Shown here: positions 1 to 14,707 of the stretch, piece after piece | Layout: each line of letters begins with the position of its first letter | How positions within the stretch are numbered: the stretch's first letter is position 1 | Origin: Promethearchaeota archaeon | GTDB taxonomy: Archaea > Asgardarchaeota > Odinarchaeia > Odinarchaeales > JBHLKK01 | DNA length: 14,707 bases | Direction: 5' to 3' | NCBI GenBank assembly: GCA_048939465.1 | Contig: JBHLPL010000044.1 | Coordinates: 1 to 14,707 of the forward strand | Notes under the pieces: generated by a model | Seen by the model: the letters and a program-made list of their open reading frames with translations, nothing else | Told to the model about the DNA's origin: nothing | Database searches by the model: none | Translations under genes and position numbers: made by a program

Positions 1-278
1 AGAAGCGCTGTGTTATCAAAATATCCCCTTGAGTCAAACTTTATTCGTTTACTGATTTCTTTTTGTAGTTCACGTTCGTTGCTAAACGTCCGCAAGAGCT
101 CCTCAGCTCTTTTAGTCTTGGGGAGTATATGTCCTTTAACGTATCTGTTCAGAACAGTTATTGGGAGCCCGGTTGCTTTTGACAAATTATCATAGGTATG
201 GGTTTTCTTTAGCAACCTTAGCAACTCGACAGCTCTTATCCGCTTTTCAATGTTCTTTAGGTGAATATCTTCACTCAA
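1..278 (-). CDS. N-terminal part of an archaeal HTH + phosphoribosyltransferase (PurR-like) protein; runs off the window edge
   Basis: Not in the ORF track. Manual translation from TTG at 278 (GGAGG just upstream): MSEDIHLKNIEKRIRAVELLRLLKKTHTYDNLSKATGLPITVLNRYVKGHILPKTKRAEELL...IKFDSRGYFDNTALL, open to base 1. The LRLLKK.TY..LS..TGLPITVLNRYVKGH.LP helix-turn-helix is typical of this archaeal family. The PRT domain would lie outside the window. Confidence 0.75.
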   Translation of the reverse strand, partial: MSEDIHLKNIEKRIRAVELLRLLKKTHTYDNLSKATGLPITVLNRYVKGHILPKTKRAEELLRTFSNERELQKEISKRIKFDSRGYFDNTAL

Positions 279-496
279 AAATACTCCTCCTACCAATGCA
301 CATCTCTCATAACCTCTGAGTGGATTTTCCATATTAAATTCTTTACATTCTAAACCTTCTCTCAAGGTTTCAACTTACGATTAAAACACACCGGCTATGT
401 CCTTCGCAGAAACAATTTATATTATGATAACAATTGAAATATAGTGCTGCAAATCGTCGGCAAATGATTAAGGTTAACTCATAAAAAGCATCAATT

Positions 497-604
497 GGGC
501 CCGTGGCCTAGCCAGGATAGGGCACTGGCCTCCTAAGCCAGTAGATCTACTTAGAATCTCTAAGTGGGGCTGATTCGCCGGTTCAAATCCGGCCGGGCCC
601 GCCA
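497..604 (+). tRNA. trnR-CCT: tRNA-Arg(CCT) with a 30-nt intron at 46/47 (545-574)
   Basis: Acceptor GGGCCCG/CGGGCCC, anticodon arm CTGGC-CTCCTAA-GCCAG, T arm GCCGG-TTCAAAT-CCGGC, encoded CCA. BHB: central helix CAGT/GCTG, bulges AG|A and AT|T, intron stem TCTACTTAGA/TCTAAGTGGG. Mature length 78 nt. Confidence 0.93.
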
Positions 605-609
605 ACGTT

Positions 610-1296
610 TTAAATCCTTTCGAGCTTTTCCACGTGATCAGCATACCCCACATATACAATGTGGGCCAGACCCGAAAAGATACCATTCTCGATTACTCCT
701 GGGATGTTGTTCAATTCTCTTTCAAGTATTGATGGCTCATCGATCTTATTGAATTTTACATCAAGTATGAAATTACCATTATCAGTAATAACCGGCCCTA
801 GCTTTCGACTTGCGTTCCTTAGGCTTACGTTCCCTCCCATTTCCTGCATTTTTCTTTTTACGAAATTATTGGCAAATGGCAGCACTTCTACCGGAACAGG
901 AACTCCCCCTATATTCTCCGAAAGCTTGGATGAATCTACGACGATTATCAGCATTGTTGCAGCGGCACCGACAATCTTTTCCCTGGTTAAAGCCGCGCCG
1001 CCACCTTTTATCAGATTTAAAGCTCGATCCACTTCATCGGCCCCATCTATAGCAATATTCAGAGAAGGATATTCGTCCAGTGAAGTCAACGGTATCCCGT
1101 TCTCTATGAGTTGATGGGCTGCTTGATGTGAACTCGGGACTGCTGAAATGTTAATTCCGTCTCGCTTCACTCTTTCTCCTAGAAGATCAATTACGTGAGT
1201 TATTGTCGTTCCACTCCCAATTCCCACGATATCCCCTTCTTTAACATGTTTTATGGCTTCTTCTCCAGCTAATCTTTTGCCCTTCTCATTAGTCAA
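610..1296 (-). CDS. rpiA: ribose-5-phosphate isomerase A
   Basis: Motifs GIGSGTT, DGADEVD, IKGGGAALTREK, PVITDNGNFILD, IPGVIENGIF. Start chosen at TTG 1296 behind GGAGG; the ORF track extends to 1323. Confidence 0.96.
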   Translation of the reverse strand: MTNEKGKRLAGEEAIKHVKEGDIVGIGSGTTITHVIDLLGERVKRDGINISAVPSSHQAAHQLIENGIPLTSLDEYPSLNIAIDGADEVDRALNLIKGGGAALTREKIVGAAATMLIIVVDSSKLSENIGGVPVPVEVLPFANNFVKRKMQEMGGNVSLRNASRKLGPVITDNGNFILDVKFNKIDEPSILERELNNIPGVIENGIFSGLAHIVYVGYADHVEKLERI

Positions 1297-1425
1297 GTTC
1301 TCTGTCCCTCCGCAAGCGTTCATTTCTATTAAAGGAACCCTTTAAGTATGATTTACATTACAAAATATATCTATTATAAACAATTTTATATAGAGATAGG
1401 ACACAAAAGCCAAATAACCTAGGAC

Positions 1426-2004
1426 ATGAGTCTATTCAAACCGGTCTTTTCTCTTAGCGCTTTGAGGATTGAGAAGAAGATGAGTGATGAGACAATCCGC
1501 AAGAGTTGGCTTGAGAAACAAATAGAAACAGCAGCTAAGAGAGATGCTATGAGCCTTTCTCATAGATTATTTGATATTTTCTTTGGTGCTGGCTTTGTTA
1601 CTCTGTTCTTAATATACTTCCTTCTTCATTACTTTCTATCAACAGGATTTTTCACTTCAGGATTTGGAAGACCAGAATTCTTCTTATTCTTCGTTCCCGC
1701 GCTCCTCGGTTTAGGGATAACTATGATGAGAGGAATTGTTGGTCGAAAGAACGTTATACGTCCTTTTGAAGTATTTCAATTGGGTCTTAGTGCAGTTGGT
1801 GTTGCTTGGCTGTTAGCGGTTTTTCCATTTGATTTTTCTCATTTTGCTGATATTCTGCCGGCTTCCGTCCAGATCCACCTGCAGTGGTTATCCAGTGATA
1901 TTGTCAGGGTGTTTATGGTACTGATACTCATAGGGACCTCCGTTGCCACCACTTATAATGCTTTGTTATATACTAATGTGCGCCAAAAACTCTCCATGGT
2001 TTAA
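1426..2004 (+). CDS. hypothetical integral membrane protein (about 4 TM segments)
   Basis: 192-aa ORF with four hydrophobic stretches (FFGAGFVTLFLIYFLL; FFLFFVPALLGLGITMM; VFQLGLSAVGVAWLLAVF; IVRVFMVLILIGTSV). No family recognised. True start may be ATG 1480. Confidence 0.7.
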   Translation: MSLFKPVFSLSALRIEKKMSDETIRKSWLEKQIETAAKRDAMSLSHRLFDIFFGAGFVTLFLIYFLLHYFLSTGFFTSGFGRPEFFLFFVPALLGLGITMMRGIVGRKNVIRPFEVFQLGLSAVGVAWLLAVFPFDFSHFADILPASVQIHLQWLSSDIVRVFMVLILIGTSVATTYNALLYTNVRQKLSMV

Positions 2005-2067
2005 GAGAATACATTAGTATGCACATATCGAGATTTCCTGGGCTCATTCAGCATAGTTATTAGTAGC

Positions 2068-2117
2068 GCGAACTACCTCATCTTTTCCGACGGAGTCCTC
2101 TTGCGGAGAAGAAGATA
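2068..2117. repeat. copy 1 of a 50-bp dispersed hairpin repeat (copy 2 at 7414-7463)
   Basis: 41/50 identity to copy 2 (31/34 over the core TTTCCGAYGGAGTCYTCTTKCGGAGAAGAAGATA). Internal stem TCTTTTCCG/CGGAGAAGA. Confidence 0.8.
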
Positions 2118-2156
2118 GGCTTTTGCAGAAGTAGAACGTTGTCATAATCTTACGGG

Positions 2157-2250
2157 TGGAGCCTCGGAAGGGATTTGAACCCTCGACCAACGGCTAAATG
2201 GTGATCTTGCACTACCATGCCGCCGCTCCACCGGGCTGAGCTACCGAGGC
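2157..2250 (-). tRNA. trnT-GGT: tRNA-Thr(GGT) with a canonical 17-nt 37/38 intron (2196-2212)
   Basis: Reverse complement GCCTCGG...CCGAGGC-T-CCA (U73 fits Thr). Anticodon arm GCGGC-ATGGTA|A-GCCGT. BHB helix ATGG/CCAT, bulges TA|G and TT|A. Mature length 77 nt. Confidence 0.93.
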
Positions 2251-2282
2251 TCTGTGTATTTGTAATTTCCAGTTTCCGATGT

Positions 2283-2288
2283 TTTAAA
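2283..2288 (-). promoter_or_regulatory. putative TATA box of tRNA-Thr(GGT)
   Basis: AAAAGA-TTTAAA on the minus strand about 33-38 nt upstream of tRNA position 1; similar boxes precede tRNA-Met and tRNA-Pro. Confidence 0.5.
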
Positions 2289-2420
2289 TCTTTTGCTATT
2301 TCAAGAACTGCTTAGAATGGGTTCGATAAAACCGATAAGAAAACGATATTGTAAATTCTCAAGAGACGGAAACACTACACTGGCTGGCAAATCCTGATTG
2401 ACTGAACATTTGGGTTCCAA

Positions 2421-2948
2421 TTACTTATGTTGCCTTTGTTTGAGGTACTCTTCTTTTAATATATCAAACGCAACACTGTCGTAGTATTTCCCGGCACGCA
2501 TACCTACTCCTCGCTCTCTACCTGCGCCCCTCATACCGTATTCTTTTACTATATCGATAAGCCAACTATTCCATGAAGGTATCCAGACGGATGCACTGTT
2601 TTTTGCGTCAAATTCCATAAACAAGTAAGACAGAGCTAGGTCAATAGCCTCTATAACTGCTTTCTTGTGTTCTTCGTTATGATTTGGAATTAGGAGATTT
2701 ATTCCACTGTAGCTGGTATAAATTATAATCATCCCCAGAAGCTTTGATCTGTCCTTTTTCTCGATGAGCATCCTAACTTCATGACTCTGCTTTGACCAAT
2801 CTTTATATTTTTTCTCCATCTGGGGAACAGTCAAAGGTAATAATATGCCGTCAGTGCCTCTCAGCTTTGGATTGCTGTACCAAGTTCGTATTGTCTCAAG
2901 GTCAGATTGTTCAACTATTCTCAGATGTATTGTTTCTCCCTTAATCAT
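2421..2948 (-). CDS. GNAT (RimJ/RimL-like) family protein with degenerate acetyl-CoA motif
   Basis: MIKGETIHLRIVEQSDL..., ending G.YYDSVAFDILKEEY. Clear paralog of the upstream GNAT and overlaps its stop by 8 nt. Confidence 0.82.
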   Translation of the reverse strand: MIKGETIHLRIVEQSDLETIRTWYSNPKLRGTDGILLPLTVPQMEKKYKDWSKQSHEVRMLIEKKDRSKLLGMIIIYTSYSGINLLIPNHNEEHKKAVIEAIDLALSYLFMEFDAKNSASVWIPSWNSWLIDIVKEYGMRGAGRERGVGMRAGKYYDSVAFDILKEEYLKQRQHK

Positions 2949-3477
2949 TGTGATACATCTCCAAGTACTCCTCTCTTAGCATATCGTAGCAGAGTGCATC
3001 CTGCCACTCTCCATCTCTCATAAACCCTTTCCGTATCCTTACAGCCAGTTTAAATCCGAGAGACTCTGAAAGTTTTTGAGCAGATATATTCCAACCGCCG
3101 GTCCATAGTGATAATTTATGGAAATTCTCTTCAAGAAAACAGATTCCTAATAATAGTTGAATCGCTTCAGTCCCATATCCTCCTCTTCGGAACTTCTCTT
3201 CACCAATTACAATACCAATCTCTGCTGAGTTGAAATCTCCAATTTGATAACTCACTGAGCCAATTAACTCTCCAGTTTTCTTTAAGACTATGGACAATCT
3301 ACGTTTTTTGTCATCGGATGTGTTCATGAATCTTTCCTGCTCGAAACGCTCAGCAGACATCGGGCTGTACCCACCAATCCACACTCCTCTCATATCATAG
3401 TCGTTATACCATTCTCGGATTTTAGATAAATCGTCTATCTCTATAGCTCGTAGGAATACCCTTTCACCTTCAAGCAA
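2941..3477 (-). CDS. GNAT (RimJ/RimL-like) N-acetyltransferase
   Basis: LEGERVFLRAIEIDDL, AEIGIVIGEEKFRRGGYGTEA (motif A), N.SAQKLSESLGFKL, GEWQDALCYDMLREE. Start taken as TTG 3477 behind GGTGA; the ORF track gives 3489. Confidence 0.9.
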   Translation of the reverse strand: MLEGERVFLRAIEIDDLSKIREWYNDYDMRGVWIGGYSPMSAERFEQERFMNTSDDKKRRLSIVLKKTGELIGSVSYQIGDFNSAEIGIVIGEEKFRRGGYGTEAIQLLLGICFLEENFHKLSLWTGGWNISAQKLSESLGFKLAVRIRKGFMRDGEWQDALCYDMLREEYLEMYHND

Positions 3478-3714
3478 GTAAATCACCAAACAAAATACAT
3501 TAACTAATAGATTATGTAGGCTAGCTATTTAATTTGTATCGTTCAGTCAAATTTCGCCAGCATGCCAAGAACAGAACAATTTGACCTTGTTAAAATATGA
3601 GGTTCAAGAATTGGAATTAACACAGACTAATTTAAAAAAGTAAATCTTGCTCTATAAAACCCAAAAAACCACATCGTATCGAGTCAAGGAATATCAACAT
3701 CTCCGGATTTTTCC

Positions 3715-4065
3715 CTATTGGATGTTGACCCTCTCGATCAGATGTGGACGTTTTAGCGGTATGATTATGTTCAGCCGGCCATTTTCAAACTTGGCCTCTG
3801 CTCTATTGGCATCTACCGGGGGAATCAGAGAGTAGCATCCTCCAAGATCTAAATCGTCTCTGGATCCTTTTATCCAAAGGCCCTGCTCAGAGACCTCCAA
3901 ATCTATATCTTCTCTCTCAACTCTGGGTAGCTCGACTTGAATGTAATAATTCATACTATCGTGATCCATAAGTACTGTAGGATTAATTATCGATTTGTAA
4001 CAGCTTTGACTGTCATTATTAATGCAAGTTGTTGAATCTACCTCACACTTTGATTCTCCAGACAA
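3715..4065 (-). CDS. small heat shock protein (Hsp20/alpha-crystallin domain)
   Basis: YYIQVELPRVEREDIDLEV...VDANRAEAKFENGRLNIIIPLK. TTG start behind GGAGGTG. Confidence 0.85.
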   Translation of the reverse strand: MSGESKCEVDSTTCINNDSQSCYKSIINPTVLMDHDSMNYYIQVELPRVEREDIDLEVSEQGLWIKGSRDDLDLGGCYSLIPPVDANRAEAKFENGRLNIIIPLKRPHLIERVNIQ

Positions 4066-4199
4066 TATAACACCTCCTACAGTTAGTAAATCCGGAAATA
4101 TAAAAACTACAATAATGAAAAACAGAATTCAATTTTGAACTGAGATTCCTTTGCCGAGTAAGTCTTATTAGGAAAAAAAGGCTCAATAGCCTCTAGAGT

Positions 4200-4365
4200 G
4201 CGAGGGTACCCAAGCTAGGTCAAAGGGGCGGGTACAGTTGATATAACTGTCGCTAAACTTAAGATCCCGTAGCGTAGAAAGCTACTAGATATCCTAGGCT
4301 TGTGAAAGCTTTCGAGGGTTCGAATTGATAGGTTTCTCATCACGAAAATCCCTCCCCTCGCACCA
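4200..4365 (+). tRNA. trnL-TAA: tRNA-Leu(TAA) with three introns: 30/31 (4233-4256), variable arm (4278-4307), 59/60 (4325-4348)
   Basis: Acceptor GCGAGGG/CCCTCGC-A-CCA. Removing 24+30+24 nt gives an 88-nt tRNA with CGGGA-CTTAAGA-TCCCG, variable arm AGC-GTAG-GCT and GAGGG-TTCGAAT-CCCTC. BHB helices GGCG/CGCT and TTCG/CGAA are clean; the variable-arm helix is relaxed. Confidence 0.88.
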
Positions 4366-4454
4366 CTTCTGGCCTTTTTCTAGAGAAAGATTATTCTAGC
4401 ACAAAATTTCTTATTTGTATGCCACTCATCTGTTTTCATCTGAGGGATCCAACC

Positions 4455-5588
4455 ATGTCCGGATATAAGGTAACTCCCTGGGAAGTTGAAGGAGTAGTCG
4501 ATTATGATAAGCTTACTGAAGAGTTTGGAACACAGAAAATCGACCAAGACTTGCTTCAAAGAATAAGCAAGCTTACGGGCGAAGTTCACTTATACCTTAG
4601 AAGAGGATTCTTCTTTTCTCATAGAGATCTAGACAAGGCGTTGGACGCTTACGAGTCTGGGAGTGGATTCTTCCTGTACACAGGGCGAGGTCCCACTGGC
4701 GATATGCATCTCGGTCACCTAATTCCCTTTCTATTCTGCAAATGGCTTCAAGACAAATTCCAAGCAAACCTGTACGTACAGATAACAGATGATGAAAAAT
4801 TCCTTCATAAGAAACCCCTATCTTTGCGTAGGACCCGGAAGTATTCCTATGAAAACATTTTAGACATAATTGCCTGTGGTCTTAATCCCGACAAGACTTT
4901 CATTTTTCAAGACAGTGAGTATACAAATATCTACCCTCTTGCCACAAAAATCGCAAAACGGATAACCTTTTCTACTGCCAAGGCAGTGTTCGGTTTTACG
5001 AGTCAGACTAATATTGGTATGATCTTCTTTCCAGCAATTCAAGCTGTACCATGTTTCCTTGAAAAGAAACAATGTCTAATTCCTGCTGCCATTGATCAAG
5101 ATCCTTATTGGCGAATACAAAGAGATGTGGCGCCAAAGCTTGGTTATAAGAAAACTGCTGCAATACATAGTAAATTCGTGCCCAGTCTAGAAGGTCCAAA
5201 GGGTAAGATGAGTGCCAGTAAGAAAGAGACCGCAATCTATCTGACTGATACGCCCAAAGATGTGAGAATGAAAATACAAAAACATGCTTTCACTGGAGGT
5301 CAGCCTACTGTAAAGGAACAAAAGGAAAAAGGAGGAAATCCGGACATATGTACTGTCCAACAATGGCTTTCGATATTCATAGAACCTGATGATGAGGCCG
5401 TAAAAGAACAGTATATACGCTGCAAACAAGGGACGCTTCTCTGTGGAGAACACAAGGAACTACTCGCAGAGAAGCTAAGTGCTTTTCTGAATGGACACCA
5501 AAGGCGACGGGAGGACGCCAGAGAATTGGTTGAGACGTTTAAGCATGAAGGAAAATTGGCTCAGACGATGTGGGTCAAGAAGTGGTAG
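4455..5588 (+). CDS. trpS: tryptophanyl-tRNA synthetase (archaeal/eukaryal type)
   Basis: VTPWEVEG, LYTGRGP, HLGH (HIGH), ITDDEKFL, CLIPAAIDQDPYWR, KMSAS (KMSKS), HAFTGGQ. Start at ATG 4455; the ORF track gives 4419. Confidence 0.97.
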   Translation: MSGYKVTPWEVEGVVDYDKLTEEFGTQKIDQDLLQRISKLTGEVHLYLRRGFFFSHRDLDKALDAYESGSGFFLYTGRGPTGDMHLGHLIPFLFCKWLQDKFQANLYVQITDDEKFLHKKPLSLRRTRKYSYENILDIIACGLNPDKTFIFQDSEYTNIYPLATKIAKRITFSTAKAVFGFTSQTNIGMIFFPAIQAVPCFLEKKQCLIPAAIDQDPYWRIQRDVAPKLGYKKTAAIHSKFVPSLEGPKGKMSASKKETAIYLTDTPKDVRMKIQKHAFTGGQPTVKEQKEKGGNPDICTVQQWLSIFIEPDDEAVKEQYIRCKQGTLLCGEHKELLAEKLSAFLNGHQRRREDARELVETFKHEGKLAQTMWVKKW

Positions 5589-5602
5589 ACTAAGGCAACA
5601 AG

Positions 5603-5612
5603 TTTTTTAAAT
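5603..5612 (+). promoter_or_regulatory. putative TATA box of tRNA-Met
   Basis: TTTTTTAAAT 26-35 nt upstream of tRNA position 1. Confidence 0.5.
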
Positions 5613-5637
5613 TATGAATAAGTGATAGTATAGGCGC

Positions 5638-5824
5638 GCCGAGGTGGCTCAGCCTGGTTAGAGCGCCGGACTAAGAACGGGCGATACTCATAATCTTAGA
5701 AGAATCGGGGTTCAGATGAGCCATCCGGAAACGGATGGTACAGAGGGATCATGCGCCTGAAGTCGCGGGTTCGAATCGTCCTGAGAACTCTTCTCTTGGC
5801 GAGACAGGCCCGCCCTCGGCACCA
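5638..5824 (+). tRNA. trnM-CAT: elongator tRNA-Met(CAT) with four putative introns: 30/31 (5670-5685), 37/38 (5693-5722), 45/46 (5731-5761), T-loop 59/60 or 60/61 (about 5776-5807)
   Basis: Acceptor GCCGAGG/CCTCGGC-A-CCA (GCC start fits elongator Met, not initiator or Ile2). Removing 16+30+31+32 nt from 187 nt gives a 78-nt cloverleaf: CCGGA-CTCATAA-TCCGG, AAGTC, GCGGG-TTCGAAN-CCCGC. Confidence 0.85.
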
Positions 5825-5916
5825 ATTACCACTTCTTCTAATCAAATATTTTATATTTGTTAAATATTTAATATGCTCATGTCCAAGAGAGTCTCAAAAA
5901 TTTGGGGTGTCGGGCA

Positions 5917-7161
5917 ATGGGCTATACGTTCTTGACACTCGACGATGTAAACGTTTCTGGCAGAAGTGTCCTAGTTAGAGTAGACATTAACTCTCCGATT
6001 AGTCCCAGAAATGGAAAGATTCTGGACATCTCTCGAATGAGAGCAATACAAGACACACTTAATGATTTGAAACCTGCAAGAGTTGTGCTTCTGGCGCATC
6101 AGAGTCGACCCGGCAAAAGTGATTTCACAACGCTTAGGCCGCATGCTAAGGTCCTCAGGACGCTTACAGGCGGTCGTGTAAGGTTTGTTGAGGATATCTT
6201 TGGACCTACGGCAAGAGATGCGATTAAATCGACCAACATCGGTGAAATCTTACTTCTGGAAAATGTTCGTTTCTATTCCGAGGAGAATATAGAGGTTCCG
6301 CCAGAAAACTTGGTCAAGACTCACTTGGTTAGGATACTGTCTCCGTATTTCGATTTGTTTGTAAATGATGCATTTCCTGCCGCGCATAGGTCTCATCCAT
6401 CGTTGGTGGGATTTGCAGAGGTTTTGCCGACAGTAGCAGGACGTGTTATGGAACGTGAGTTGAACGCCCTAAACAAGAGTCTGAATCCAGATAGACCCTG
6501 TGCTTTTGTTATTGGTGGAAGTAAGGTCTATACAAAACTTAAGATCATCGAAAACATATTGAAGAATGGTAAGGCTGATAAAATCCTTGTTGGAGGCCTT
6601 TTGACACACATCTTCCTTCAAGCTGTTGGCAGAGATATTGGCAAGGTCAATGAGAAAGCTGTGGCAGAATACGGAAAACTCTTGGACCACGCTAAAAAGC
6701 TTATTAAAAAGCATGAGTCTGTAATAGAAATCCCTACAGATGTTGGCATTGACAAGGATGACGAAAGAATTAATATTTCCACCGACGAGCTACCGTCAGA
6801 TCACCAGATCTTGGATGTCGGTCCAAACACGGTTGATAAATATATAGATATCATTAACGCTTCTCAAACTGTTGTTGCAAACGGACCTTTGGGCGTTTTT
6901 GAAAGAAACGATTTTGCCTTCGGAACCAAGAAGATAGTTGAAGCCATGGCTACACACAATGAAACTACTATTGTTGGCGGGGGCGAATTAGGGGCTCTTA
7001 TCTACACTCTTGGGCTTGACAGTAAACTGAGTCATGTGAGTACAGGTGGCGGTGCAACAATATCTCTGCTCTCTGGTGAGCAATTGCCGGTGATTGCCGC
7101 TCTAGAACGTGCGTCCAAAAGATTCCGACAAGCAACCCGCAAAAAACTTAAAAAAACTTAA
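5917..7161 (+). CDS. pgk: phosphoglycerate kinase (archaeal type)
   Basis: LVRVDINSP, LAHQSRPG, LLENVRF, FVNDAFPAAHRSHPS, GGSKV, VANGPLGVFE, HVSTGGGA. Start at ATG 5917. Confidence 0.97.
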   Translation: MGYTFLTLDDVNVSGRSVLVRVDINSPISPRNGKILDISRMRAIQDTLNDLKPARVVLLAHQSRPGKSDFTTLRPHAKVLRTLTGGRVRFVEDIFGPTARDAIKSTNIGEILLLENVRFYSEENIEVPPENLVKTHLVRILSPYFDLFVNDAFPAAHRSHPSLVGFAEVLPTVAGRVMERELNALNKSLNPDRPCAFVIGGSKVYTKLKIIENILKNGKADKILVGGLLTHIFLQAVGRDIGKVNEKAVAEYGKLLDHAKKLIKKHESVIEIPTDVGIDKDDERINISTDELPSDHQILDVGPNTVDKYIDIINASQTVVANGPLGVFERNDFAFGTKKIVEAMATHNETTIVGGGELGALIYTLGLDSKLSHVSTGGGATISLLSGEQLPVIAALERASKRFRQATRKKLKKT

Positions 7162-7219
7162 TGTACCTTCTTATTCAATATCTTGATGAGAACAGCTAGG
7201 TCATATCCATCAATGGAGA

Positions 7220-7351
7220 GCCCCGGTGGCTTAGCCCGGTAGAGCAGCGGACTTGTAGGTCACGTTAGGCTTGGCTAAGAAATCCGCCGATTAGTGGTAA
7301 TTTACCATCATTAAGCGGAAGTCAAGGGTTCAAATCCCTTCCGGGGCTCCA
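7220..7351 (+). tRNA. trnT-TGT: tRNA-Thr(TGT) with two introns: 37/38 (7258-7281) and 45/46 (7290-7320)
   Basis: GCCCCGG/CCGGGGC-T-CCA. Anticodon arm GCGGA-CTTGTA|A-TCCGC. BHB helices CTTG/TAAG and CCGC/GCGG. Mature length 77 nt. Confidence 0.92.
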
Positions 7352-7413
7352 TCATTTGGAAAATCGGATTTTTATGCACCTTACATGGATCTTCATTGAA
7401 AAGGATCTTGCCG

Positions 7414-7463
7414 GTGAACTACGCCACTATTTCCGATGGAGTCTTCTTTCGGAGAAGAAGATA
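7414..7463. repeat. copy 2 of the 50-bp dispersed hairpin repeat
   Basis: 41/50 identical to 2068-2117, same orientation on the + strand. Stem TTTCCGA/TCGGAGA. Confidence 0.8.
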
Positions 7464-7466
7464 AAG

Positions 7467-7474
7467 TTTTAAAT
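7467..7474 (+). promoter_or_regulatory. putative TATA box of tRNA-Pro
   Basis: AAAG-TTTTAAAT 29-36 nt upstream of tRNA position 1. Confidence 0.5.
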
Positions 7475-7502
7475 TTGGATTACATCCAGTAGATTACCAA
7501 GT

Positions 7503-7640
7503 GGGGCGGTGGTCTAGCTTGGTATGATACAAGATTTGGGAGTGTCTCACATAACGTGTGATGCCGGCAAATCTTGTGGTCAGGAGTTCGAATCGAAAGG
7601 GCGTTACTACTTTTTCGAGGAATTCTCCTCCGCCCCACCA
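7503..7640 (+). tRNA. trnP-TGG: tRNA-Pro(TGG) with two introns: 37/38 (7541-7570) and 59/60 (7593-7623)
   Basis: GGGGCGG/CCGCCCC-A-CCA. Anticodon arm CAAGA-TTTGGG|A-TCTTG, T arm AGGAG/CTCCT. Both introns have good hairpins and relaxed (3 of 4 pairs) central helices. Mature length 77 nt. Confidence 0.9.
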
Positions 7641-7728
7641 ACTCCTTGATTTAATCTTTCATGATCCCGTGTCTTGGCTCGATATGTTTTTATTGAAATT
7701 CTGACTAAGACCTTCTTTGTGATATCCA

Positions 7729-8697
7729 ATGAGTGATGATATTGGTATTTGGGTTGAGAAATATCGCCCAAGAACGCTAAAAGACATAATCAATCAAACG
7801 GAGATAGTAGATAGGCTAAAGCACTTTGCAAACACAAGATCTATGCCGCACCTGATCTTTGCTGGCCCTCCCGGTACCGGAAAGACTACTGCTGCTTTAG
7901 CGCTGGCACACGATCTATTCGGTGACAACTATCGGCAGAATATGTTAGAACTGAATGCGAGCGATACCAGAGGGATCGATGTTATAAGAACGAGAGTGAA
8001 GGACTTTGCCCGCGTGTCGGGCTATGGCGAAGTACCCTTCAAATTAATGATTCTAGATGAAGCAGACAATATGACTGCAGATGCTCAACAAGCGTTAAGG
8101 AGAACGATGGAGCAATATACGCGAAATACCAGATTTATACTTGACTGCAACTACTCCAGTAAAATCATAGAGCCAATTCAATCACGCACTGTAGTCTTCA
8201 GGTTCACGCCGTTAAGCAATGAGGATATTACCAAACAGCTCGGGAATATAGCAAAGAGCGAAAGCGTGGATCTTACTCCTGAAGGAACTTCTGCAATTCT
8301 ATACGTTGCTGGCGGAGATATGCGAAAGGCCATCAACACTCTGCAGGCGGCATCTGCGTTTTCAGGAAGTGTTGGAGCGGATGTTGTCTACAAAGTTACT
8401 GGCAAGGCAAGGCCTGAGGAAATTGAATCAATGATTAATCTTGCATTACAGGGAGAGTTCATTGAATCAAGAGAAAAACTCAGAGAATTACTAATAAGAT
8501 ACGGTCTTTCTGGTGTTGACGTAATAAGACAGATCCACAAGGCCCTTTTTGTCCTTGACATCCCCGAAGACCTGAGGGTAAGTCTTGCTGATAAGACTGG
8601 AGAGATTGATTTTCGGTTAACTGAAGGTGCAAATGAGGAAATTCAGTTAAACGCCCTTCTGGCTTTCTGTGCTCTCCTAGGAAGCAAGAAAGATTAG
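7729..8697 (+). CDS. rfcS: replication factor C small subunit
   Basis: WVEKYRP, GPPGTGKT (Walker A), LELNASD, ILDEAD (Walker B), AQQALRRTME, IQSR, GDMRKAINTLQ. No intein. Confidence 0.97.
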   Translation: MSDDIGIWVEKYRPRTLKDIINQTEIVDRLKHFANTRSMPHLIFAGPPGTGKTTAALALAHDLFGDNYRQNMLELNASDTRGIDVIRTRVKDFARVSGYGEVPFKLMILDEADNMTADAQQALRRTMEQYTRNTRFILDCNYSSKIIEPIQSRTVVFRFTPLSNEDITKQLGNIAKSESVDLTPEGTSAILYVAGGDMRKAINTLQAASAFSGSVGADVVYKVTGKARPEEIESMINLALQGEFIESREKLRELLIRYGLSGVDVIRQIHKALFVLDIPEDLRVSLADKTGEIDFRLTEGANEEIQLNALLAFCALLGSKKD

Positions 8698-8706
8698 TCT
8701 CCTCTA

Positions 8707-9528
8707 TTATTCTTCCATTCTTAGGGAACTGAATGCACTCAGGAATGTTTGGTGAACCCGCATTCTAATCTGATAGTCTCTGGCTACCTGTCGCAAGTAT
8801 TCTCTAATCTCCTCCAAGGCGATTCTATTAACTGCAAATGAAAAAGGATATTCGATATTGTACAGGATTAGTCCCCGTGAGGAAGCGGGTTGTACATCCT
8901 TGGTTGGGGAGCTGGACGGATTCAAAAGTGTTCTTAGCTCCTCCAGAGGCATGATGCCTTTTCCAATATGCAGAAGCGTCGTCACGATCTTTCGTATCAT
9001 TTTCCAGAGAAATCTCTTTCCCTTAAAATCAAAAACAACGAAATCACCTTGCTTCTGCAACTTAACTTCCAAAAGAGTACAAATCGTGTTGTCTTTCTTA
9101 TTCGGCTTAGATAGCTTTTGAAAATCGTGGGTACCTTCCAGTAGTGATGCTCCTTTTATCATTTCATCCAGATTCTCTCCATCGTACGGTATGATATATC
9201 TATAATGCTTGTATATGGCCTCTTTTCTAGGATTGAATTTCTCTGGAACCTCAGATATCGCCCACGTTTTGATGTCTTTAGGAAGAAGACTATTAATCAG
9301 TGGGATTATCGGAGTCTGAGCTGATGAAAAACTGACTACTTGAGAAACCGCTGAGACTTCTCTGTCCGTTCTACTTGCAGAAACATATCTTGCCTTCCTT
9401 AGGTCCTCAACAATCTTCAATTTCTTAAGAACTCTTAGAAGCTCTCCTTCAATTGTAGACAGATCTGGTTGACGCTGGAATCCGTGATAGTTAAGTCCAA
9501 TGTAGAACAATTTGATTGCATAGCGCAT
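8707..9528 (-). CDS. truA: tRNA pseudouridine(38-40) synthase
   Basis: YHGFQRQP, ASRTD (catalytic Asp), EGTHDF, FLWKMIRKIV. Confidence 0.94.
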   Translation of the reverse strand: MRYAIKLFYIGLNYHGFQRQPDLSTIEGELLRVLKKLKIVEDLRKARYVSASRTDREVSAVSQVVSFSSAQTPIIPLINSLLPKDIKTWAISEVPEKFNPRKEAIYKHYRYIIPYDGENLDEMIKGASLLEGTHDFQKLSKPNKKDNTICTLLEVKLQKQGDFVVFDFKGKRFLWKMIRKIVTTLLHIGKGIMPLEELRTLLNPSSSPTKDVQPASSRGLILYNIEYPFSFAVNRIALEEIREYLRQVARDYQIRMRVHQTFLSAFSSLRMEE

Positions 9529-9608
9529 CTCGGTTTCACCAAGGAGTCAGTCGACGGAACAAGTTGAATAAGCTAAATCAACGCTTGTTTAAGTCAAACC
9601 GATCTGAC
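9529..9608 (-). promoter_or_regulatory. structured 5' leader of truA: long hairpin plus SD-sequestering hairpin
   Basis: Minus strand: GTCAG/CTGAC, CGG/CCG, AACAAG/CTTGTT and TTGA/TCAA nested stems, then CTTGGT-GAA-ACCGAG directly before ATG. TTAAAT at 9633-9628. Confidence 0.45.
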
Positions 9609-9638
9609 GGAACCATTCAAAGTAGGCATTTAAGAGAT

Positions 9639-10172
9639 TCAGATTCGCTTTTCCTTAAGATGCTTCATTATATGACCAATCTCGGGGATTATTAATTGTT
9701 CCAATGCGAGTCTTGCAGCATCGGGTGAACCTGGCAAGCAGAATATCACAGTTTCTTTTATAATACCTGCTATTGCCCTTGTTAGTATAGTTGCCGCACC
9801 AATTTCCTTGAAGCTTATCTGTCGTAGAAGCTCCCCGAAACCGGGAATCTTCTTTTCTAGAAGGGGTTCTATCGATTCCACGGTCACATCCCTCGGTGAG
9901 AGCCCTGTCCCCCCTGTTGTTATAATTGCTGGCACCGGAATACCTAATAACTCCTCTACAACTCTCAGAATATGTGCCTTGCTATCAGGAACGCATTCTA
10001 TGGATTCTACCTTATGTCCCGCATCCGTCAGGAGTTGAACCATGATGGGGGTGGATCTATCACTGGACTCCTTTCCAGATTTCAACTCCTCGTATCTCGA
10101 GTCGCTTACAACAACAACGGCAAATGGTATGTTCTTGGGTGCCCCTTTCTTGTGTTTTGCTGGTATTGACAT
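9639..10172 (-). CDS. moaB: molybdenum cofactor biosynthesis protein B (MoaB/MogA family)
   Basis: VVVVSDSR, ITTGGTGLSPRDVTVE, IPGFGELLR, IFCLPGSPDA. Confidence 0.93.
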   Translation of the reverse strand: MSIPAKHKKGAPKNIPFAVVVVSDSRYEELKSGKESSDRSTPIMVQLLTDAGHKVESIECVPDSKAHILRVVEELLGIPVPAIITTGGTGLSPRDVTVESIEPLLEKKIPGFGELLRQISFKEIGAATILTRAIAGIIKETVIFCLPGSPDAARLALEQLIIPEIGHIMKHLKEKRI

Positions 10173-10181
10173 CAATCTCGC

Positions 10182-10637
10182 CTATTTTCTCTTCTCTTTT
10201 CTTATTACGCGTATGTCTGTTATTGCAGTGTTTGGATATTGACCGAACTCGTCTTTTTCATACTTTTTTACCATATCCCAAATTGTTAATAACGCTGCAC
10301 TGAGAGATGTTAGCGCCTCCATTTCCACCCCTGTTTTGCCTACGCTCACGACTTCGCTCGTTACTGTGAGGCCGTTGTCTTCTATTTTCGTGACTATTGA
10401 GACCTTAGTTATAGGTATGGGATGACATAGAGGCACAATGATCGGTGTTTGCTTTGCTGCCAGGATGGCCGCAGTCTTCGCCACCGCCAGCACGTTGCCC
10501 TTCTCCACATTTCCCTTTCTGATTCTTATCACCGTTTCTGGTCGAAGTCTAATATGTCCGCTTGCTCGGGCGATCCTTGTCAAATCAGCCTTTCGAGTTA
10601 TCTCAACCATTCTAACTTGATCCTTTTCCTCTTCCAT
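10182..10637 (-). CDS. moaC: cyclic pyranopterin monophosphate synthase
   Basis: VRMVEIT.K...R.A.ASG, KGNVLAVA, IVPLCHPIPI, GKTGVEMEAL, TIWDMVK. Confidence 0.96.
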   Translation of the reverse strand: MEEEKDQVRMVEITRKADLTRIARASGHIRLRPETVIRIRKGNVEKGNVLAVAKTAAILAAKQTPIIVPLCHPIPITKVSIVTKIEDNGLTVTSEVVSVGKTGVEMEALTSLSAALLTIWDMVKKYEKDEFGQYPNTAITDIRVIRKEKRK

Positions 10638-10721
10638 GTTTATGCCTCTCCTATCTTTACGTCCAAAAATGAAGATGGGCTAAATTCATCTCGGAGATAC
10701 TTCCTAAGAATTCTTCTCACC

Positions 10722-11456
10722 TTATCTTCCCGGAACTACTTTTTCGGATTTCTCTTCTATGCGTTCTCTGTCGAATGCGTCCCTGTGTTTCATTTTCATT
10801 TTTCTACTCAACATCTGCTGGATCTTCTTTTGCATAAGAGTGCGTTCCTTAACCAAGTCTGTGATTTTGCTTTGGAAGTCACCAAGACGGGTTGATAAAC
10901 CTTCCAGTCTTCTATTTAAACTCTGAATGGTTAGGTCCTTTCTTCTTATACTCGCTTTCAGTCTTGAGAGTCTTGAGAGCAGGATTTCTCTCTCTTTTTC
11001 TAGCTCTGTAACATTTAATCTCAGAATTCGTATCTCTTCAATTACCGGGTTGATTTCTGGGTAGTACCTTCCAGTTAATTGCGTGATCGAGGCTAGTTGC
11101 TCATTTATGGTATCGAAGTTCCTACCAAAAAAACTGAGGGCTCTATCGGTATCTAGCTCCTTGTTAGTTAATATTCTATAGTTATTCTCCAATGTGTCTA
11201 TGGCTTCTTGATACTGCGTTTGTGTTTCTTCACTTCTCTGGTACTCCAGTGTTTCGGCAGCTACCCTCCTAAGTCCCTTTAGGGATCCAGCAAGTTGCCT
11301 GATATAGCTTGCTATCTGACCCCTTTGTTCTATAGCCTCATCTTTTTCTAAGGTCTTCAATCTTGAGCTGGCCCCATCCAACATTCTTATCAATAGCTTT
11401 ACCCTGCTTAGCCTTTCCTCAAAAGGTAGAGTCAATATTTCTCCCCTCGGGGTCAC
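10722..11456 (-). CDS. hypothetical coiled-coil protein
   Basis: 244-aa ORF, all-helical composition, long heptad-like stretch from about residue 135 to 220. GTG start uncertain; no family recognised. Confidence 0.7.
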   Translation of the reverse strand: MTPRGEILTLPFEERLSRVKLLIRMLDGASSRLKTLEKDEAIEQRGQIASYIRQLAGSLKGLRRVAAETLEYQRSEETQTQYQEAIDTLENNYRILTNKELDTDRALSFFGRNFDTINEQLASITQLTGRYYPEINPVIEEIRILRLNVTELEKEREILLSRLSRLKASIRRKDLTIQSLNRRLEGLSTRLGDFQSKITDLVKERTLMQKKIQQMLSRKMKMKHRDAFDRERIEEKSEKVVPGR

Positions 11457-11607
11457 CCAATAAATAGGTGGATCTTCATTCTTTAATTCTCACTCTTATG
11501 ATAGCCTCTCTTACTAAATAAGAATTGCTTTTCTCTTATATGGTATCTGAAATCTGTCAGGTGGGAGCTTATCCGAACCAAAAAATCGCCCAATGAGCGT
11601 GAATGCT

Positions 11608-12240
11608 CTATCGTAGCATGCTCAGTGCCTTTCTACGTATTTTCGTCAAAAAGCGCGTTGGCCGACCGTATACTTCTGTCCGGTTTTTTCGTATAGCTTC
11701 CAATATGTCCTCAACATCTGTCTCATCAATTATTGTATATGCATTTCCTACAGCTGTGCCAATGTGTGCATCACTTCCAGCAACAGTGGAATATCCTTCT
11801 TTTTCAGCGGCTCTTCTGGCAAGTCTGTTTGCAAATGGTAAAACCAAGTTTGAATTGTAAACCTCTACAGCATCGAATTTTAGCGCTTTCATCCTAAAGC
11901 CTATGCTATTTCTCAAAAGGTCATATGGATGCGGTATAACTGCTATTCCTCCTCTATCTCTTATCAAGTCAATTGTTTCCTGTGCACTCCTTCCTTCTGG
12001 CAATCTTTGCGTTATACCTAATCCCAGTATTTCACCATCCTTTGTAGATACCTCTGTCCCCGGAATAACTGTAAGCTCTTGGTTATTTCTCATTGCTTGA
12101 AGAGCTCCAACAGTTGTGTTGTGATCGGTTATTGCGATCCCGTCGAGTTTCTTGCTTATCGCTATTTTGACTATTGTCTTTGGTGAATCTAAGCCACACT
12201 TTGAATAGTGCGTATGTATGTGGAGGTCGAACTTTGCCAT
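11608..12240 (-). CDS. PHP-domain metal-dependent phosphoesterase
   Basis: DLHIHTHYS, AITDHN, PGTEVST..G.IL, IPHPY, AVEVYNS, AGSDAH. Confidence 0.92.
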   Translation of the reverse strand: MAKFDLHIHTHYSKCGLDSPKTIVKIAISKKLDGIAITDHNTTVGALQAMRNNQELTVIPGTEVSTKDGEILGLGITQRLPEGRSAQETIDLIRDRGGIAVIPHPYDLLRNSIGFRMKALKFDAVEVYNSNLVLPFANRLARRAAEKEGYSTVAGSDAHIGTAVGNAYTIIDETDVEDILEAIRKNRTEVYGRPTRFLTKIRRKALSMLR

Positions 12241-12299
12241 TTTCTACATCTCTGGAGATTCATCGCAATTTTCAATGTGAATTTTTTACCCTTCTTATT

Positions 12300-13928
12300 T
12301 CAATCTGATAGCGCCATTATCAATGCTTTCTTAAATTCATTTAATGTGGCCCGATCCGTACGTTCTGCCATTTTGTTTGGAAGACATATGAATCGAATTC
12401 CTCTAAGATCAGAGCCTTTTCTAAAAGCCTCGACTAATTCATTTCCATACTTATCCCAATTGTTATAAAAAACAACCGTTTTGTATATGTGTGTTGAAAC
12501 GTACTCCTCAAAGGCATTTGATATCGTCTCAACACTTTCGTATTGGTACTCATCTAATACCTCGTGCTGCGAGAGTGGATATATATCTTCCAACTCTCGT
12601 GGAGTGAGTCCAAATAGCATGGAAACTGTAAAAACATGAAATCTTTCCCTTTCTTTTGCAGAGAATTCTTCGAATATTTCTTGATATCTCCGATGTTCGA
12701 TGGATCGTCTGTAGGGCTTGGTTCTTGGCTCAGGTAAAACTACCATAATATCGGTTTTTTCTGGTTTTTCATATCGCTTGAGTCTCTCTATGTGTCGAAT
12801 CGTCTCAGGTCTCGATAGGGAGGACGTTCCACAATAGAATATCCCTCTTTTTTTTATCAATGGAGTGAATCTTTCAAGGTATTTAGAGTATTTCTTGAGC
12901 CTATATAGGCTTTGAAGGAGTTTGGGATGAGCTCTGCTCCTCATTTCCACGAACTCCCAAAGCCTCCCGTCATAGATTGCTTGTCTTATCTTCCTAATCT
13001 CGTTTAGTGAGACATACAGGTTGTGTCTCGAAATAACTATCTCCCGTTCGTTGGGCGGAAGTTGATTTATCTCTTGTGGGTCAATTCTTCGGCAGACAGG
13101 ACACAAGCAAATGGATTCTTTTAGATTTCCCATGCGTACCGTCCCTTGGTTTGTCATATATCGTCCCTGTGCTGCATACAAAGCATAAGCTGCGGAGTCA
13201 AAAACGTCACACCCAAGCAATACGGCAAGTGAAAACATCATTGGGTGGCCAGCACCGAAAAGATGTACTGGTCTCTCCAGTGGTAAATTCATTTTCGCAC
13301 TCATGATTAATTCCACAATCTGATCAAACCGGTATTGTTCCATTAGCTGGGTTGGACTCCCGATAGCATGTATGTCGAAATCAAGCTTCCCCATCTCTTC
13401 CGCACATAGTTGGACCAAATCCAGATTAGTGCCTCCCTGTATTGGCCCTACCCATAAAAGATCCTCCTTAGTTCTTATCGCTTCACTTTCTTTAGCTCTT
13501 CTTATGGTCTCCATCACTGTGTCTCTGGCGTGGCTATACGAGGCGCTACCTCCAGTTGGAACATCGAGTATTACTGCGATATCAGAGTCGATCTTCTCCT
13601 GAAATGTGATGATTTCGGATGAAGAAACATCAACTTGACCATAGACTAGCAGCTGATAGGCTCCTGAATCTGTCATAATCGATTTTGAAAAATCAAGCAA
13701 TCTATGGACGGTCTTCTTGATGGCTTCGCATCTCAAGTTCTTATAAAGAATGTACGCATTCGTGATTATTGCATCACATCCAAATTCTCTTTCAAGTTCT
13801 TCCGGCGGGACAGTTATTTTCATCGGATTTACTACTGGCAACAGTACTGGTGTTCTTATTTTTCCTGTTTTGGTACGTATCGTTCCAGTGCGTCCCATTA
13901 TGTCTCTTTCTTTGATTTCAAAGGCCAT
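12300..13928 (-). CDS. tgtA: archaeal tRNA-guanine(15) transglycosylase (archaeosine pathway)
   Basis: TPVLLPVVNP, IITNAYI, MTDSGAYQL, GPIQGG, PVHLFGAGHP, DVFDSAAY, zinc site CLCPVC...RHNL. No C-terminal PUA domain evident. Start at ATG 13928; the ORF track gives 13937. Confidence 0.95.
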   Translation of the reverse strand: MAFEIKERDIMGRTGTIRTKTGKIRTPVLLPVVNPMKITVPPEELEREFGCDAIITNAYILYKNLRCEAIKKTVHRLLDFSKSIMTDSGAYQLLVYGQVDVSSSEIITFQEKIDSDIAVILDVPTGGSASYSHARDTVMETIRRAKESEAIRTKEDLLWVGPIQGGTNLDLVQLCAEEMGKLDFDIHAIGSPTQLMEQYRFDQIVELIMSAKMNLPLERPVHLFGAGHPMMFSLAVLLGCDVFDSAAYALYAAQGRYMTNQGTVRMGNLKESICLCPVCRRIDPQEINQLPPNEREIVISRHNLYVSLNEIRKIRQAIYDGRLWEFVEMRSRAHPKLLQSLYRLKKYSKYLERFTPLIKKRGIFYCGTSSLSRPETIRHIERLKRYEKPEKTDIMVVLPEPRTKPYRRSIEHRRYQEIFEEFSAKERERFHVFTVSMLFGLTPRELEDIYPLSQHEVLDEYQYESVETISNAFEEYVSTHIYKTVVFYNNWDKYGNELVEAFRKGSDLRGIRFICLPNKMAERTDRATLNEFKKALIMALSD

Positions 13929-14004
13929 CCTCTGCACCTTTTGTGGATTTCTCGTTATTTTTTTACCACTAACAAAAAAAGAATAACACTATTAGAGCAA
14001 AGCT

Positions 14005-14436
14005 CTAATCCGCTTCTTTTTCTTCAAAATAGTGTTCATAGACTTTTCTCACGCGTTCCGCAATAGGTCCTGTTCCCTCTACGCCTTCTTCTGTAACTCG
14101 TATTTTGTTAAGTATTGATATCACTCTGGCATCTTCTAGGTACTTAACTTCGCCTGGGGGAAATATTTTTTGAAGTTCGTCGGCCAAACCTCCTAGGTCA
14201 AAGGGCTCTTCTGTTTTTACAAGCTCGACGATGTTGTTTCCATTTATAAAGACCCTATGAGCCATCTTCCCTTCATTGTCCTTTGCATCGGCAAGAACCA
14301 GGCTCAGGGTATTCACATCGAACCCTTTTAATACGCCGCTGTATGTCTTTCCTGAAGTCATAATCACATTCACTGCCGATTCCAGTAATGAAACCAACTC
14401 TCTAAAGAAGCGTCTACTTGATGCACTTTCAGACAT
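14005..14436 (-). CDS. Sm-like archaeal protein with C-terminal extension (SmAP3 type)
   Basis: Sm fold V.V....GK.YSGVLKGFD..TLSLVL.DA......RVFING.NI, followed by an about 65-aa C-terminal domain (PFDLGGLA..L...F....VKY...A.VI.I.NKI.V...GV.GTGP.AERV) characteristic of SmAP3. Confidence 0.88.
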   Translation of the reverse strand: MSESASSRRFFRELVSLLESAVNVIMTSGKTYSGVLKGFDVNTLSLVLADAKDNEGKMAHRVFINGNNIVELVKTEEPFDLGGLADELQKIFPPGEVKYLEDARVISILNKIRVTEEGVEGTGPIAERVRKVYEHYFEEKEAD

Positions 14437-14707
14437 TCCCTTTCCCTTCTCTACCGCCTTTTGTACTGATCAAATCTTTTTGGCTGGATAAGAATAGAGA
14501 GTAAACACGTATTTTACAGTTGCCATTTTCATGTTCAAATATCACACTTCCAACAAAAGAGAATCCCAAAATAGCCTTTTGACAGGGGGCCATTTCGCTT
14601 AGACAATACTTTTGTAGCCTAGAGTCGCTTGTTATCCCGCAGAAATTGCTCTTGATGCAAATGTAAAAGAAACCCTAGCTGCTTTGATACCGGTTTTGGA
14701 AAAGCAG

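Follow-up and report, generated by a model that had tools for sequence, protein, structure and literature searches.

Six interrupted tRNA genes with thirteen introns in an Asgard archaeon of the Odinarchaeum order, and a candidate broad-specificity splicing endonuclease

A stretch of 14,707 nucleotides from the metagenome-assembled genome (MAG) of a Promethearchaeota archaeon (assembly GCA_048939465.1, contig JBHLPL010000044.1, positions 1 to 14,707 of the forward strand; hereafter, the window) contains six transfer RNA (tRNA) genes, all of them interrupted, with a total of 13 introns. Four introns occupy the canonical 37/38 position, whereas nine are found elsewhere, including positions 30/31 (two), 45/46 (two) and 46/47 (one), the variable arm of tRNA-Leu (one) and the T-loop position 59/60 (three). 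We interpret these loci as six functional Asgard tRNA genes, the bulge-helix-bulge (BHB) introns of which would be cut by an (alpha-beta)2 splicing endonuclease (EndA), with the exons joined by the ligase RtcB, and we assign to this reading a probability of roughly 0.88. An earlier reading of the window by a model that saw only the sequence (the sequence-only reading) had proposed 13 introns in six tRNAs, nine of them non-canonical, and the enumeration of BHB motifs combined with cloverleaf scoring arrived at the same sites.

The introns were located by a script that enumerated BHB motifs, defined as a 4-bp helix flanked by two 3-nt bulges with cuts after the second bulge base, removed the candidate intron combinations and scored each product as a cloverleaf; tRNA-Met(CAU) was solved by hand and then verified. 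A solver with relaxed filters overfits long precursors, returning nonsense for tRNA-Met, and solutions with scores under 32-33 were set aside as probably false. The precursors carry one to four introns of 16-32 nt each (Table 1), and all six spliced products display (i) 20-21 of the 21 stem pairs, (ii) a 7-nt anticodon loop, (iii) a 7-nt T-loop, and (iv) sensible anticodons and discriminator bases; the 3' CCA is encoded by all six genes. For five of the six anticodons the window gene is the only one found in the genome, and the second gene with the anticodon CAU is also interrupted; in our own tRNA census of the genome, no second archaeal gene without introns turned up for any of these anticodons.

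Table 1. tRNA genes, introns and neighbouring genes of the window (positions in the window; introns follow the gene that they interrupt)
Feature	Position	Strand	Properties
tRNA-Arg(CCU), one intron	497-601	+	Rfam tRNA 55.4 bits; 75-nt product, 21/21 stem pairs; CCA 602-604
Arg(CCU) 46/47 intron, 30 nt	545-574	+	HBh' type; central helix CAGU/GCUG; 10-bp inner helix
tRNA-Thr(GGU), one intron	2160-2250	-	Rfam/Infernal match and cloverleaf scoring
Thr(GGU) canonical 37/38 intron, 17 nt	2196-2212	-	central helix AUGG/CCAU
tRNA-Leu(UAA), three introns	4200-4362	+	spliced product 20/21 stem pairs; CCA 4363-4365
Leu(UAA) 30/31 intron, 24 nt	4233-4256	+	canonical hBHBh'; GGCG/CGCU; 7-bp inner helix
Leu(UAA) variable-arm intron, 26-30 nt	~4279-4306	+	three registers (ambiguity 1-2 nt); 28-nt register gives exact helix
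Leu(UAA) 59/60 T-loop intron, 24 nt	4325-4348	+	textbook hBHBh': T-stem, then UUCG/CGAA, two 3-nt bulges
tRNA-Met(CAU), four introns	5638-5821	+	elongator-type acceptor stem; 75-nt product, 21/21 stem pairs; CCA 5822-5824
Met(CAU) 30/31 intron, 16 nt	5670-5685	+	central helix CGCC/GGCG
Met(CAU) 37/38 intron, 30 nt	5693-5722	+	central helix CUCA/UGAG
Met(CAU) 45/46 intron, 31 nt	5731-5761	+	relaxed motif CCGG/CCUG; one mismatch; weak inner helix
Met(CAU) 59/60 T-loop intron, 32 nt	5776-5807	+	two mismatches in central helix; flanked by 5-bp T-stem and 4-bp inner helix
tRNA-Thr(UGU), two introns	7220-7348	+	Rfam 46.3 bits; spliced product 21/21 stem pairs; CCA 7349-7351
Thr(UGU) canonical 37/38 intron, 24 nt	7258-7281	+	central helix CUUG/UAAG
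Thr(UGU) 45/46 intron, 31 nt	7290-7320	+	central helix CCGC/GCGG; 8-bp inner helix
tRNA-Pro(UGG), two introns	7503-7637	+	spliced product 20/21 stem pairs; adjoins Thr(UGU); CCA 7638-7640
Pro(UGG) 37/38 intron, 30 nt	7541-7570	+	one mismatch in central helix
Pro(UGG) 59/60 T-loop intron, 31 nt	7593-7623	+	one mismatch; 8-bp inner helix
TruA-type pseudouridine synthase	8707-9528	-	near the tRNA genes
Archaeosine tRNA-guanine transglycosylase	12300-13937	-	near the tRNA genes
Lsm protein with Lsm_C domain	14005-14436	-	near the tRNA genes

The BHB geometry of these introns is well above chance. The central helix, in which G-U pairs were allowed, is exact in nine of the 13 introns, shows a single mismatch in three and two mismatches in one. 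The mismatches that the sequence-only reading had reported for Met 45/46 (one), both Pro introns (one each) and Met 59/60 (two) were recovered, and for the Leu variable-arm intron an alternative register without a mismatch exists. With the exon context fixed and each intron shuffled 2000 times, 0.34 canonical BHB junctions are expected versus nine observed, and 2.2 junctions with at most one helix mismatch versus 12 observed. In addition, one of the flanking helices, h or h', measures 2 bp or more in all 13 introns and 4-10 bp in most of them, and the RNAfold minimum-energy folds of the Leu and Met precursors contain the BHB motif of the T-arm, comprising the T-stem, the UUCG helix and the 3-nt bulges.

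The window belongs to a MAG (G000) of 152 contigs and 1.96 Mb, with 43% G+C, 91% completeness and 3.8% estimated contamination. The organism is an Asgard archaeon placed in the GTDB order to which Candidatus Odinarchaeum yellowstonii LCB_4 also belongs but in a separate family; the order comprises seven genomes, including G000 with G006 and G007 (one genus, three species) and four genomes of another family. According to kinship labels, the order includes a genome named by NCBI 'Candidatus Odinarchaeota archaeon J65_bin.29' and the phylum includes Baldrarchaeum yapensis, all 30 of the 30 nearest genomes sharing the phylum with Odin- and Baldrarchaeota genomes; the best matches of the replication factor C (RFC) encoded in the window are Asgard and TACK MAGs. 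Membership of the Thermoproteales, an order in which such genes are already described and which the sequence-only reading had weighed against an independent lineage, is rejected since all 30 nearest genomes are Asgard-phylum relatives, and its preference for a lineage other than Thermoproteales is borne out. The placement likewise contradicts an assignment to the Hodarchaeota. The genome of LCB_4 (G008) is a closed chromosome of 1,418,269 bp with 38% G+C, closed by polymerase chain reaction (PCR), from an organism described as thermophilic (Tamarit 2022, PMC9246712); the paper leaves tRNAs and introns unmentioned.

Comparison with these relatives separates the exons from the introns. In G006 and G007, MAGs of 78-82% completeness in which the flanks of the compared tRNA loci are 85-91% identical to those of G000, the exons of tRNA-Arg(CCU) and tRNA-Thr(GGU) are invariant and every substitution is intronic, with two substitutions in all inside the Arg intron and three inside the Thr intron. 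G000 and four Odinarchaeum species share the four insertion sites of the tRNA-Met(CAU) gene, with one insert at each; across the five, the exon blocks are identical whereas the inserts have diverged. The GGCG strand of the 30/31 intron is conserved in the five species, the 45/46 site is kept in Odinarchaeum with one mismatch there too but at a different pair, and the 59/60 site is kept in the four Odinarchaeum species with a single mismatch in the helix.

The remaining genes of LCB_4 display both shared and differing sites. Its tRNA-Leu(UAA) has the 30/31 intron, with a diverged sequence, and the variable-arm intron, whereas the T-arm is compact where G000 has 24 extra bases. In tRNA-Thr(UGU) the 37/38 site is common to both genomes and the 45/46 intron of G000 corresponds to the same or the adjacent 46/47 site, while tRNA-Pro(UGG) has the 59/60 intron in both and a second one at 45/46 in LCB_4 versus 37/38 in G000; the Thr(UGU)-Pro(UGG) gene pair is preserved. 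On the other hand, the LCB_4 tRNA-Thr(GGU) intron is found at 46/47 versus 37/38 in G000, and its tRNA-Arg(CCU) is compact (75 nt), as are Ser(GCU), Arg(UCU) and Val(GAC). Between its two families, the order combines long-term retention of intron positions, as in the four sites of tRNA-Met, with turnover, as in Pro 37/38 versus 45/46 and in the extra 59/60 introns.

The candidate splicing machinery is encoded in the same genome. Two EndA-family genes match PF01974, at C90:9287-9538 and C139:31376-31636, and this family is matched in all seven genomes of the order, mostly twice. The protein encoded on C90, of 204 aa, can be aligned along its entire length with the alpha subunit of EndA from Aeropyrum pernix (E 1.5e-44) and preserves (i) the catalytic triad Y142/H150/K181, equivalent to Y125/H133/K164; (ii) the substrate residues R174 and W201, equivalent to R157 and W183; and (iii) a loop insert, GIRKPKIPEFNRP, that aligns with DVEKPRGADFEGP of A. 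pernix, K59 corresponding to K44 and K61 to R46. The roles of these residues were established in the A. pernix enzyme, in which mutagenesis showed that the loop lysine K44 is needed for broad specificity (Hirata 2011, PMC3241643; PDB code, 3P1Z). The protein encoded on C139, of 191 aa, has its closest match in the enzyme from M. jannaschii (E 1.6e-28), keeps the Tyr and Lys, and displays a Val at the position of His125; it differs from the short crenarchaeal-type beta subunit in being a full-length EndA-like protein, resembling the M. jannaschii homotetramer enzyme and lacking only the catalytic His. This pair fits a catalytic alpha subunit (C90) and a structural beta subunit (C139) of a putative (alpha-beta)2 EndA with an L1/CSL loop. 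The permissive endonuclease anticipated by the sequence-only reading, which had asked for the EndA architecture, thus has its counterpart in an encoded two-subunit EndA with the broad-specificity loop.

RtcB is present twice in the genome. One of the two genes, at C31:2961-5708 on the minus strand, shows a Pfam match in two pieces (profile positions 1-57 and 45-426) about 1.4 kb apart within a single frame of 973 aa, which suggests a putative intein in the tRNA ligase.

In the mechanism proposed here, the (alpha-beta)2 EndA would cut each precursor following the second nucleotide of every 3-nt bulge, with the alpha subunit supplying the Tyr/His/Lys triad and the lysine of the L1/CSL loop for broad specificity, the beta subunit having its His replaced by Val, and RtcB would then join the exons. 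Because several motifs use nucleotides of the D-stem or the anticodon stem, the precursor would have to refold between cuts.

Several points weigh against this interpretation. The cleavage of the introns, the ligation of the exons and the order of the cuts are deduced from gene sequences, and the assembly of the heterotetramer and its action on relaxed motifs from homology. The solver sets the intron boundaries partly by BHB geometry, so that the exact cut sites depend on the model, several of them with an ambiguity of 1-3 nt, and the genome-wide census given below provides lower bounds only. Met 59/60, with its two mismatches, and Met 45/46, with one mismatch and an inner helix of 2 bp, are poor BHB motifs. 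Finally, the predicted fold of the Met precursor favours a hairpin, CCAUCCG-GAAA-CGGAUGG, which sequesters the 3' strand of the anticodon stem. This hairpin (window positions 5718-5741) comprises a perfect 7-bp stem with a GAAA tetraloop, dominates the predicted fold, and covers the end of the second Met intron, exon positions 38-45 and the start of the third intron; it is not conserved in Odinarchaeum, and as modelled it would compete with the anticodon stem of tRNA-Met.

The two poor Met motifs are also the basis of an alternative that we consider unlikely, in which the inserts are genuine, yet those with weak motifs, Met 45/46 (with its weak flank) and Met 59/60, are retained as extra loops or removed by an activity other than EndA. 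It is in line with a preprint from 2026, according to which a sizeable minority of the inserts in Asgard archaea have no canonical motif and for none of them has splicing been demonstrated (10.64898/2026.10.13.758758). However, the L-shape of the tRNA would be destroyed by 31-32 extra nucleotides in either the variable loop or the T-loop; five species retain both Met inserts at unchanged sites, where the motifs, although relaxed, can still be recognised and are flanked by helices of 4-5 bp; and EndA enzymes with the CSL/L1 loop cut relaxed motifs (PMC3241643; PMC5829648).

The recurrence of the 59/60 site, found in 12 of the 32 tRNAs solved genome-wide, might be read as the spread of a few intron families by copying or transposition, as proposed for Thermoproteales; we regard this as improbable. 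An all-against-all comparison of 62 introns yielded one match of 11 nt and no families, and no second genomic copy of any of the 62 was found in G000. A census of 90 Asgard genomes, released as a preprint in 2026, likewise reports no intron families, reaching the same conclusion for other Asgard families (10.64898/2026.10.13.758758).

That the genes are decaying pseudogenes or tRNA debris, with functional copies elsewhere, for instance in unassembled parts of the MAG, is largely refuted and has very little left in its favour: the MAG is incomplete, several expected anticodons were not recovered in the census, and one intron-free tRNA-Leu(UAA) occurs on contig C43. Against this stand the exons, fully conserved across two families while the inserts diverge, and the closed chromosome of LCB_4, in which the genes are interrupted in the same layout and Met, Leu(UAA), Thr(UGU) and Pro(UGG) have no compact second copies. 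The sequence-only reading had itself pointed to intron-free copies of the same isoacceptors as a sign of pseudogenes, and the C43 gene is the only such copy. It is, however, a bacterial-type tRNA (C43:3-89, minus strand) beside a tyrosine integrase open reading frame (99-1172, minus strand), the nearest clusters of which are bacterial (WOR-3, Nitrospirota and Aminicenantota); it was not found in G006, G007 or G008, the first two being incomplete. C43 probably represents either bacterial contamination of the MAG or a mobile element, with contamination the most likely, and its tRNA was rejected as a refutation of the window tRNA-Leu(UAA). Both the pseudogene reading and an assembly artefact are excluded because the exons are invariant while the introns diverge at shared sites; that the inserts arose by misassembly or misbinning, as a fragmented MAG with some estimated contamination might suggest, has next to no probability, given that same-genus genomes assembled independently and the PCR-closed LCB_4 (PMC9246712) carry the same inserts at the same positions, and given the specific RNA geometry of the inserts.

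The six interrupted genes of the window lie in a genome in which about 94% of the solved tRNA genes carry introns (Table 2). The census required an intact GTTCRA T-loop, U8 and a 7-bp acceptor stem, and all its counts are consequently lower bounds. The 59/60 T-loop position is the commonest non-canonical site in G000.

Table 2. Lower-bound census of tRNA introns in the window's genome and in Candidatus Odinarchaeum yellowstonii LCB_4
Count	G000	LCB_4
High-scoring solved tRNA genes	32	34
Genes with at least one intron	30 (about 94%)	28
Genes with at least two introns	20	17
All introns	58	46
Introns per gene	1.81	1.35
37/38 introns	17	16
59/60 introns	12	4
45/46 introns	8	6
46/47 introns	5	5

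The number of clean Infernal tRNA matches was used as a rough inverse index of interruption across 31 Asgard relatives, giving 21 for G000, 31 for LCB_4, 13-14 for two closed Asgard genomes of 2.8 Mb, and 4-11 in another Asgard family. G000 is therefore heavily interrupted, yet not the extreme of its phylum. Six near-complete Asgard relatives (G016, G026, G022, G032, G029 and G033, two of them the closed 2.8-Mb genomes) show 4-14 clean matches, which suggests that they carry heavier intron loads than G000.

The tRNA-Trp(CCA) gene (C41:2014-2209 in G000 and G008:337450-337614 in LCB_4) has an unusually long 37/38 intron, of 66 nt in G000 and 62 nt in LCB_4. The two introns share conserved blocks, CUGAC...ACGGAUGAAGA...UCUGGAGCG, which we take to resemble the internal D'/C' boxes of the box C/D guide RNA of tRNA-Trp introns in Euryarchaeota.

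The expectation of the sequence-only reading that standard annotation would miss such genes proved correct, as ARAGORN and Infernal overlook half of the tRNAs in the window. With default settings, ARAGORN reports a single tRNA at 2157-2250 and names it Pro(UGG), the gene being in fact Thr(GGU), whereas Rfam/Infernal recovers three of the six genes (497-601; 2160-2250, minus strand; and 7220-7348), all of them far longer than a tRNA. The Leu, Met and Pro genes, all three of which carry 59/60 introns, were missed by Infernal and by ARAGORN with or without its intron mode. Over the whole genome the intron-free tRNAs that ARAGORN finds number only seven, and Infernal gives 24 tRNA matches above threshold, most of them 90-140 nt long. 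The share of tRNA genes invisible to both programs is thus half in the window and probably a quarter or more genome-wide, and because such interrupted genes go undetected, inferences on completeness and codon usage for MAGs of this kind are biased.

The sequence-only reading had also argued from A-U-rich tRNA stems that the organism is not a hyperthermophile; the argument is weak, since the stems average 81% G+C over the 32 solved tRNAs versus 80% in the thermophilic LCB_4, although its conclusion is plausible. The IVYWREL proteome index, converted by the formula reportedly given by Zeldovich et al. in 2007, puts G000 at about 63 C and LCB_4 at 72 C. No reverse gyrase match above the cut-off was found in G000, G006, G007 or LCB_4, and as the thermophilic LCB_4 also lacks one, the marker is uninformative. 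The best reading of these data is a moderate thermophile; a mesophile is not indicated.

Between the tRNA genes, the window encodes the tryptophanyl-tRNA synthetase (TrpRS), the phosphoglycerate kinase (PGK) and the RFC small subunit. A Pfam match had suggested that an Hsp20-like open reading frame at 3715-4065 was truncated; this candidate was rejected, as it is an intact, short and intron-free protein. A repeat some 50 nt long, with the core TTTCCGAYGGAGTCYTCTTKCGGAGAAGAAGATA, is dispersed in about 19 copies over G000 and in at least 10 over the same-genus genomes, including copies at window positions 7414-7474 and 2070-2117 and at C73:16325-16377, C23:17237-17285 and C141:1405-1449, among others; it matched no Rfam family and shows no significant fold. 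The Thr(UGU)-Pro(UGG) spacer, of 154 nt here and only 16 nt in LCB_4, is largely occupied by one copy. Synteny of window positions 4100-7700 was not recovered in the 78-82% complete G006 and G007, the dispersed repeat being the only match. Elsewhere in the genome, the S-adenosylhomocysteine hydrolase gene (ahcY; C118:315-951, minus strand) displays a fragmented Pfam match with stops between the pieces, in which a quick, strict BHB scan of the locus resolved no introns.

The phenomenon and the type of enzyme are already published for Asgard archaea, and no new mechanism emerges from the window. The statement in the sequence-only reading that such intron densities are known mainly from Thermoproteales is outdated in view of these Asgard cases (PMC11291895; 10.64898/2026.10.13.758758; PMC5829648). 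Complete genomes of Atabeyarchaeia and Freyarchaeia have introns in 92-95% of tRNA genes, more than half of which carry several, often at non-canonical sites (Valentin-Alvarado 2024, PMC11291895). The survey of 90 Asgard genomes reports 2.2 inserts per gene in three focal families and a mean of 0.91 elsewhere, with a two-paralog EndA widespread (Goswami 2026, bioRxiv 10.64898/2026.10.13.758758), and a survey that covered the tRNAs and EndA of LCB_4 described an (alpha-beta)2 EndA with the L1 loop in Asgard archaea including LCB_4, together with the suspicion of undetected disrupted tRNA genes (Kaneta 2018, PMC5829648).

G000 resembles the published intron-rich Asgards in the proportion of interrupted tRNA genes (about 92-97% in those lineages, more than half with several introns), the sites in the T-arm and variable region, the short introns (median lengths of 22-28 nt), the many genes missed by the tools and the absence of families. 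It differs from them in that 59/60 is its commonest non-canonical site and in that the Odinarchaeum order is not named as intron-rich in the main text of PMC11291895 or 10.64898/2026.10.13.758758; its load of about 1.8 introns per gene, obtained with a lower-bound method, falls between the 0.91 of the other families and the 2.2 of the focal ones. LCB_4 is like G000 in its two EndA paralogs and in the shared sites of Met, Leu (30/31 and variable arm), Thr(UGU) and Pro (59/60), and unlike it in its lower load and rarer 59/60 introns. The order Thermoproteales, according to Sugahara 2008 and Fujishima 2010 as cited in other papers, shares with G000 several BHB introns per gene, the 30/31, 45/46 and 59/60 sites and an (alpha-beta)2 EndA with the CSL loop; it belongs to another phylum and is hyperthermophilic, whereas G000 is read as a moderate thermophile without detected transposing intron families.

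The Odinarchaeum order therefore joins the Asgard lineages with heavily interrupted tRNA genes, and the comparison of its two families is relevant to how introns are gained in archaeal tRNAs. The distribution of sites suggests, tentatively and at somewhat less than even odds, that the family of G000 underwent its own wave of new 59/60 introns in at least eight tRNAs, with mutually unrelated sequences and with Odinarchaeum orthologs devoid of 59/60 introns, whereas older ones, for instance the tRNA-Met introns (four), stayed in place throughout the order as their sequences turned over completely; alternatively, the extra 59/60 introns may reflect loss in Odinarchaeum instead of gain in the family of G000. 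If the wave did take place, this lineage would be a natural system for catching the origin of archaeal tRNA introns at one structurally favoured site.

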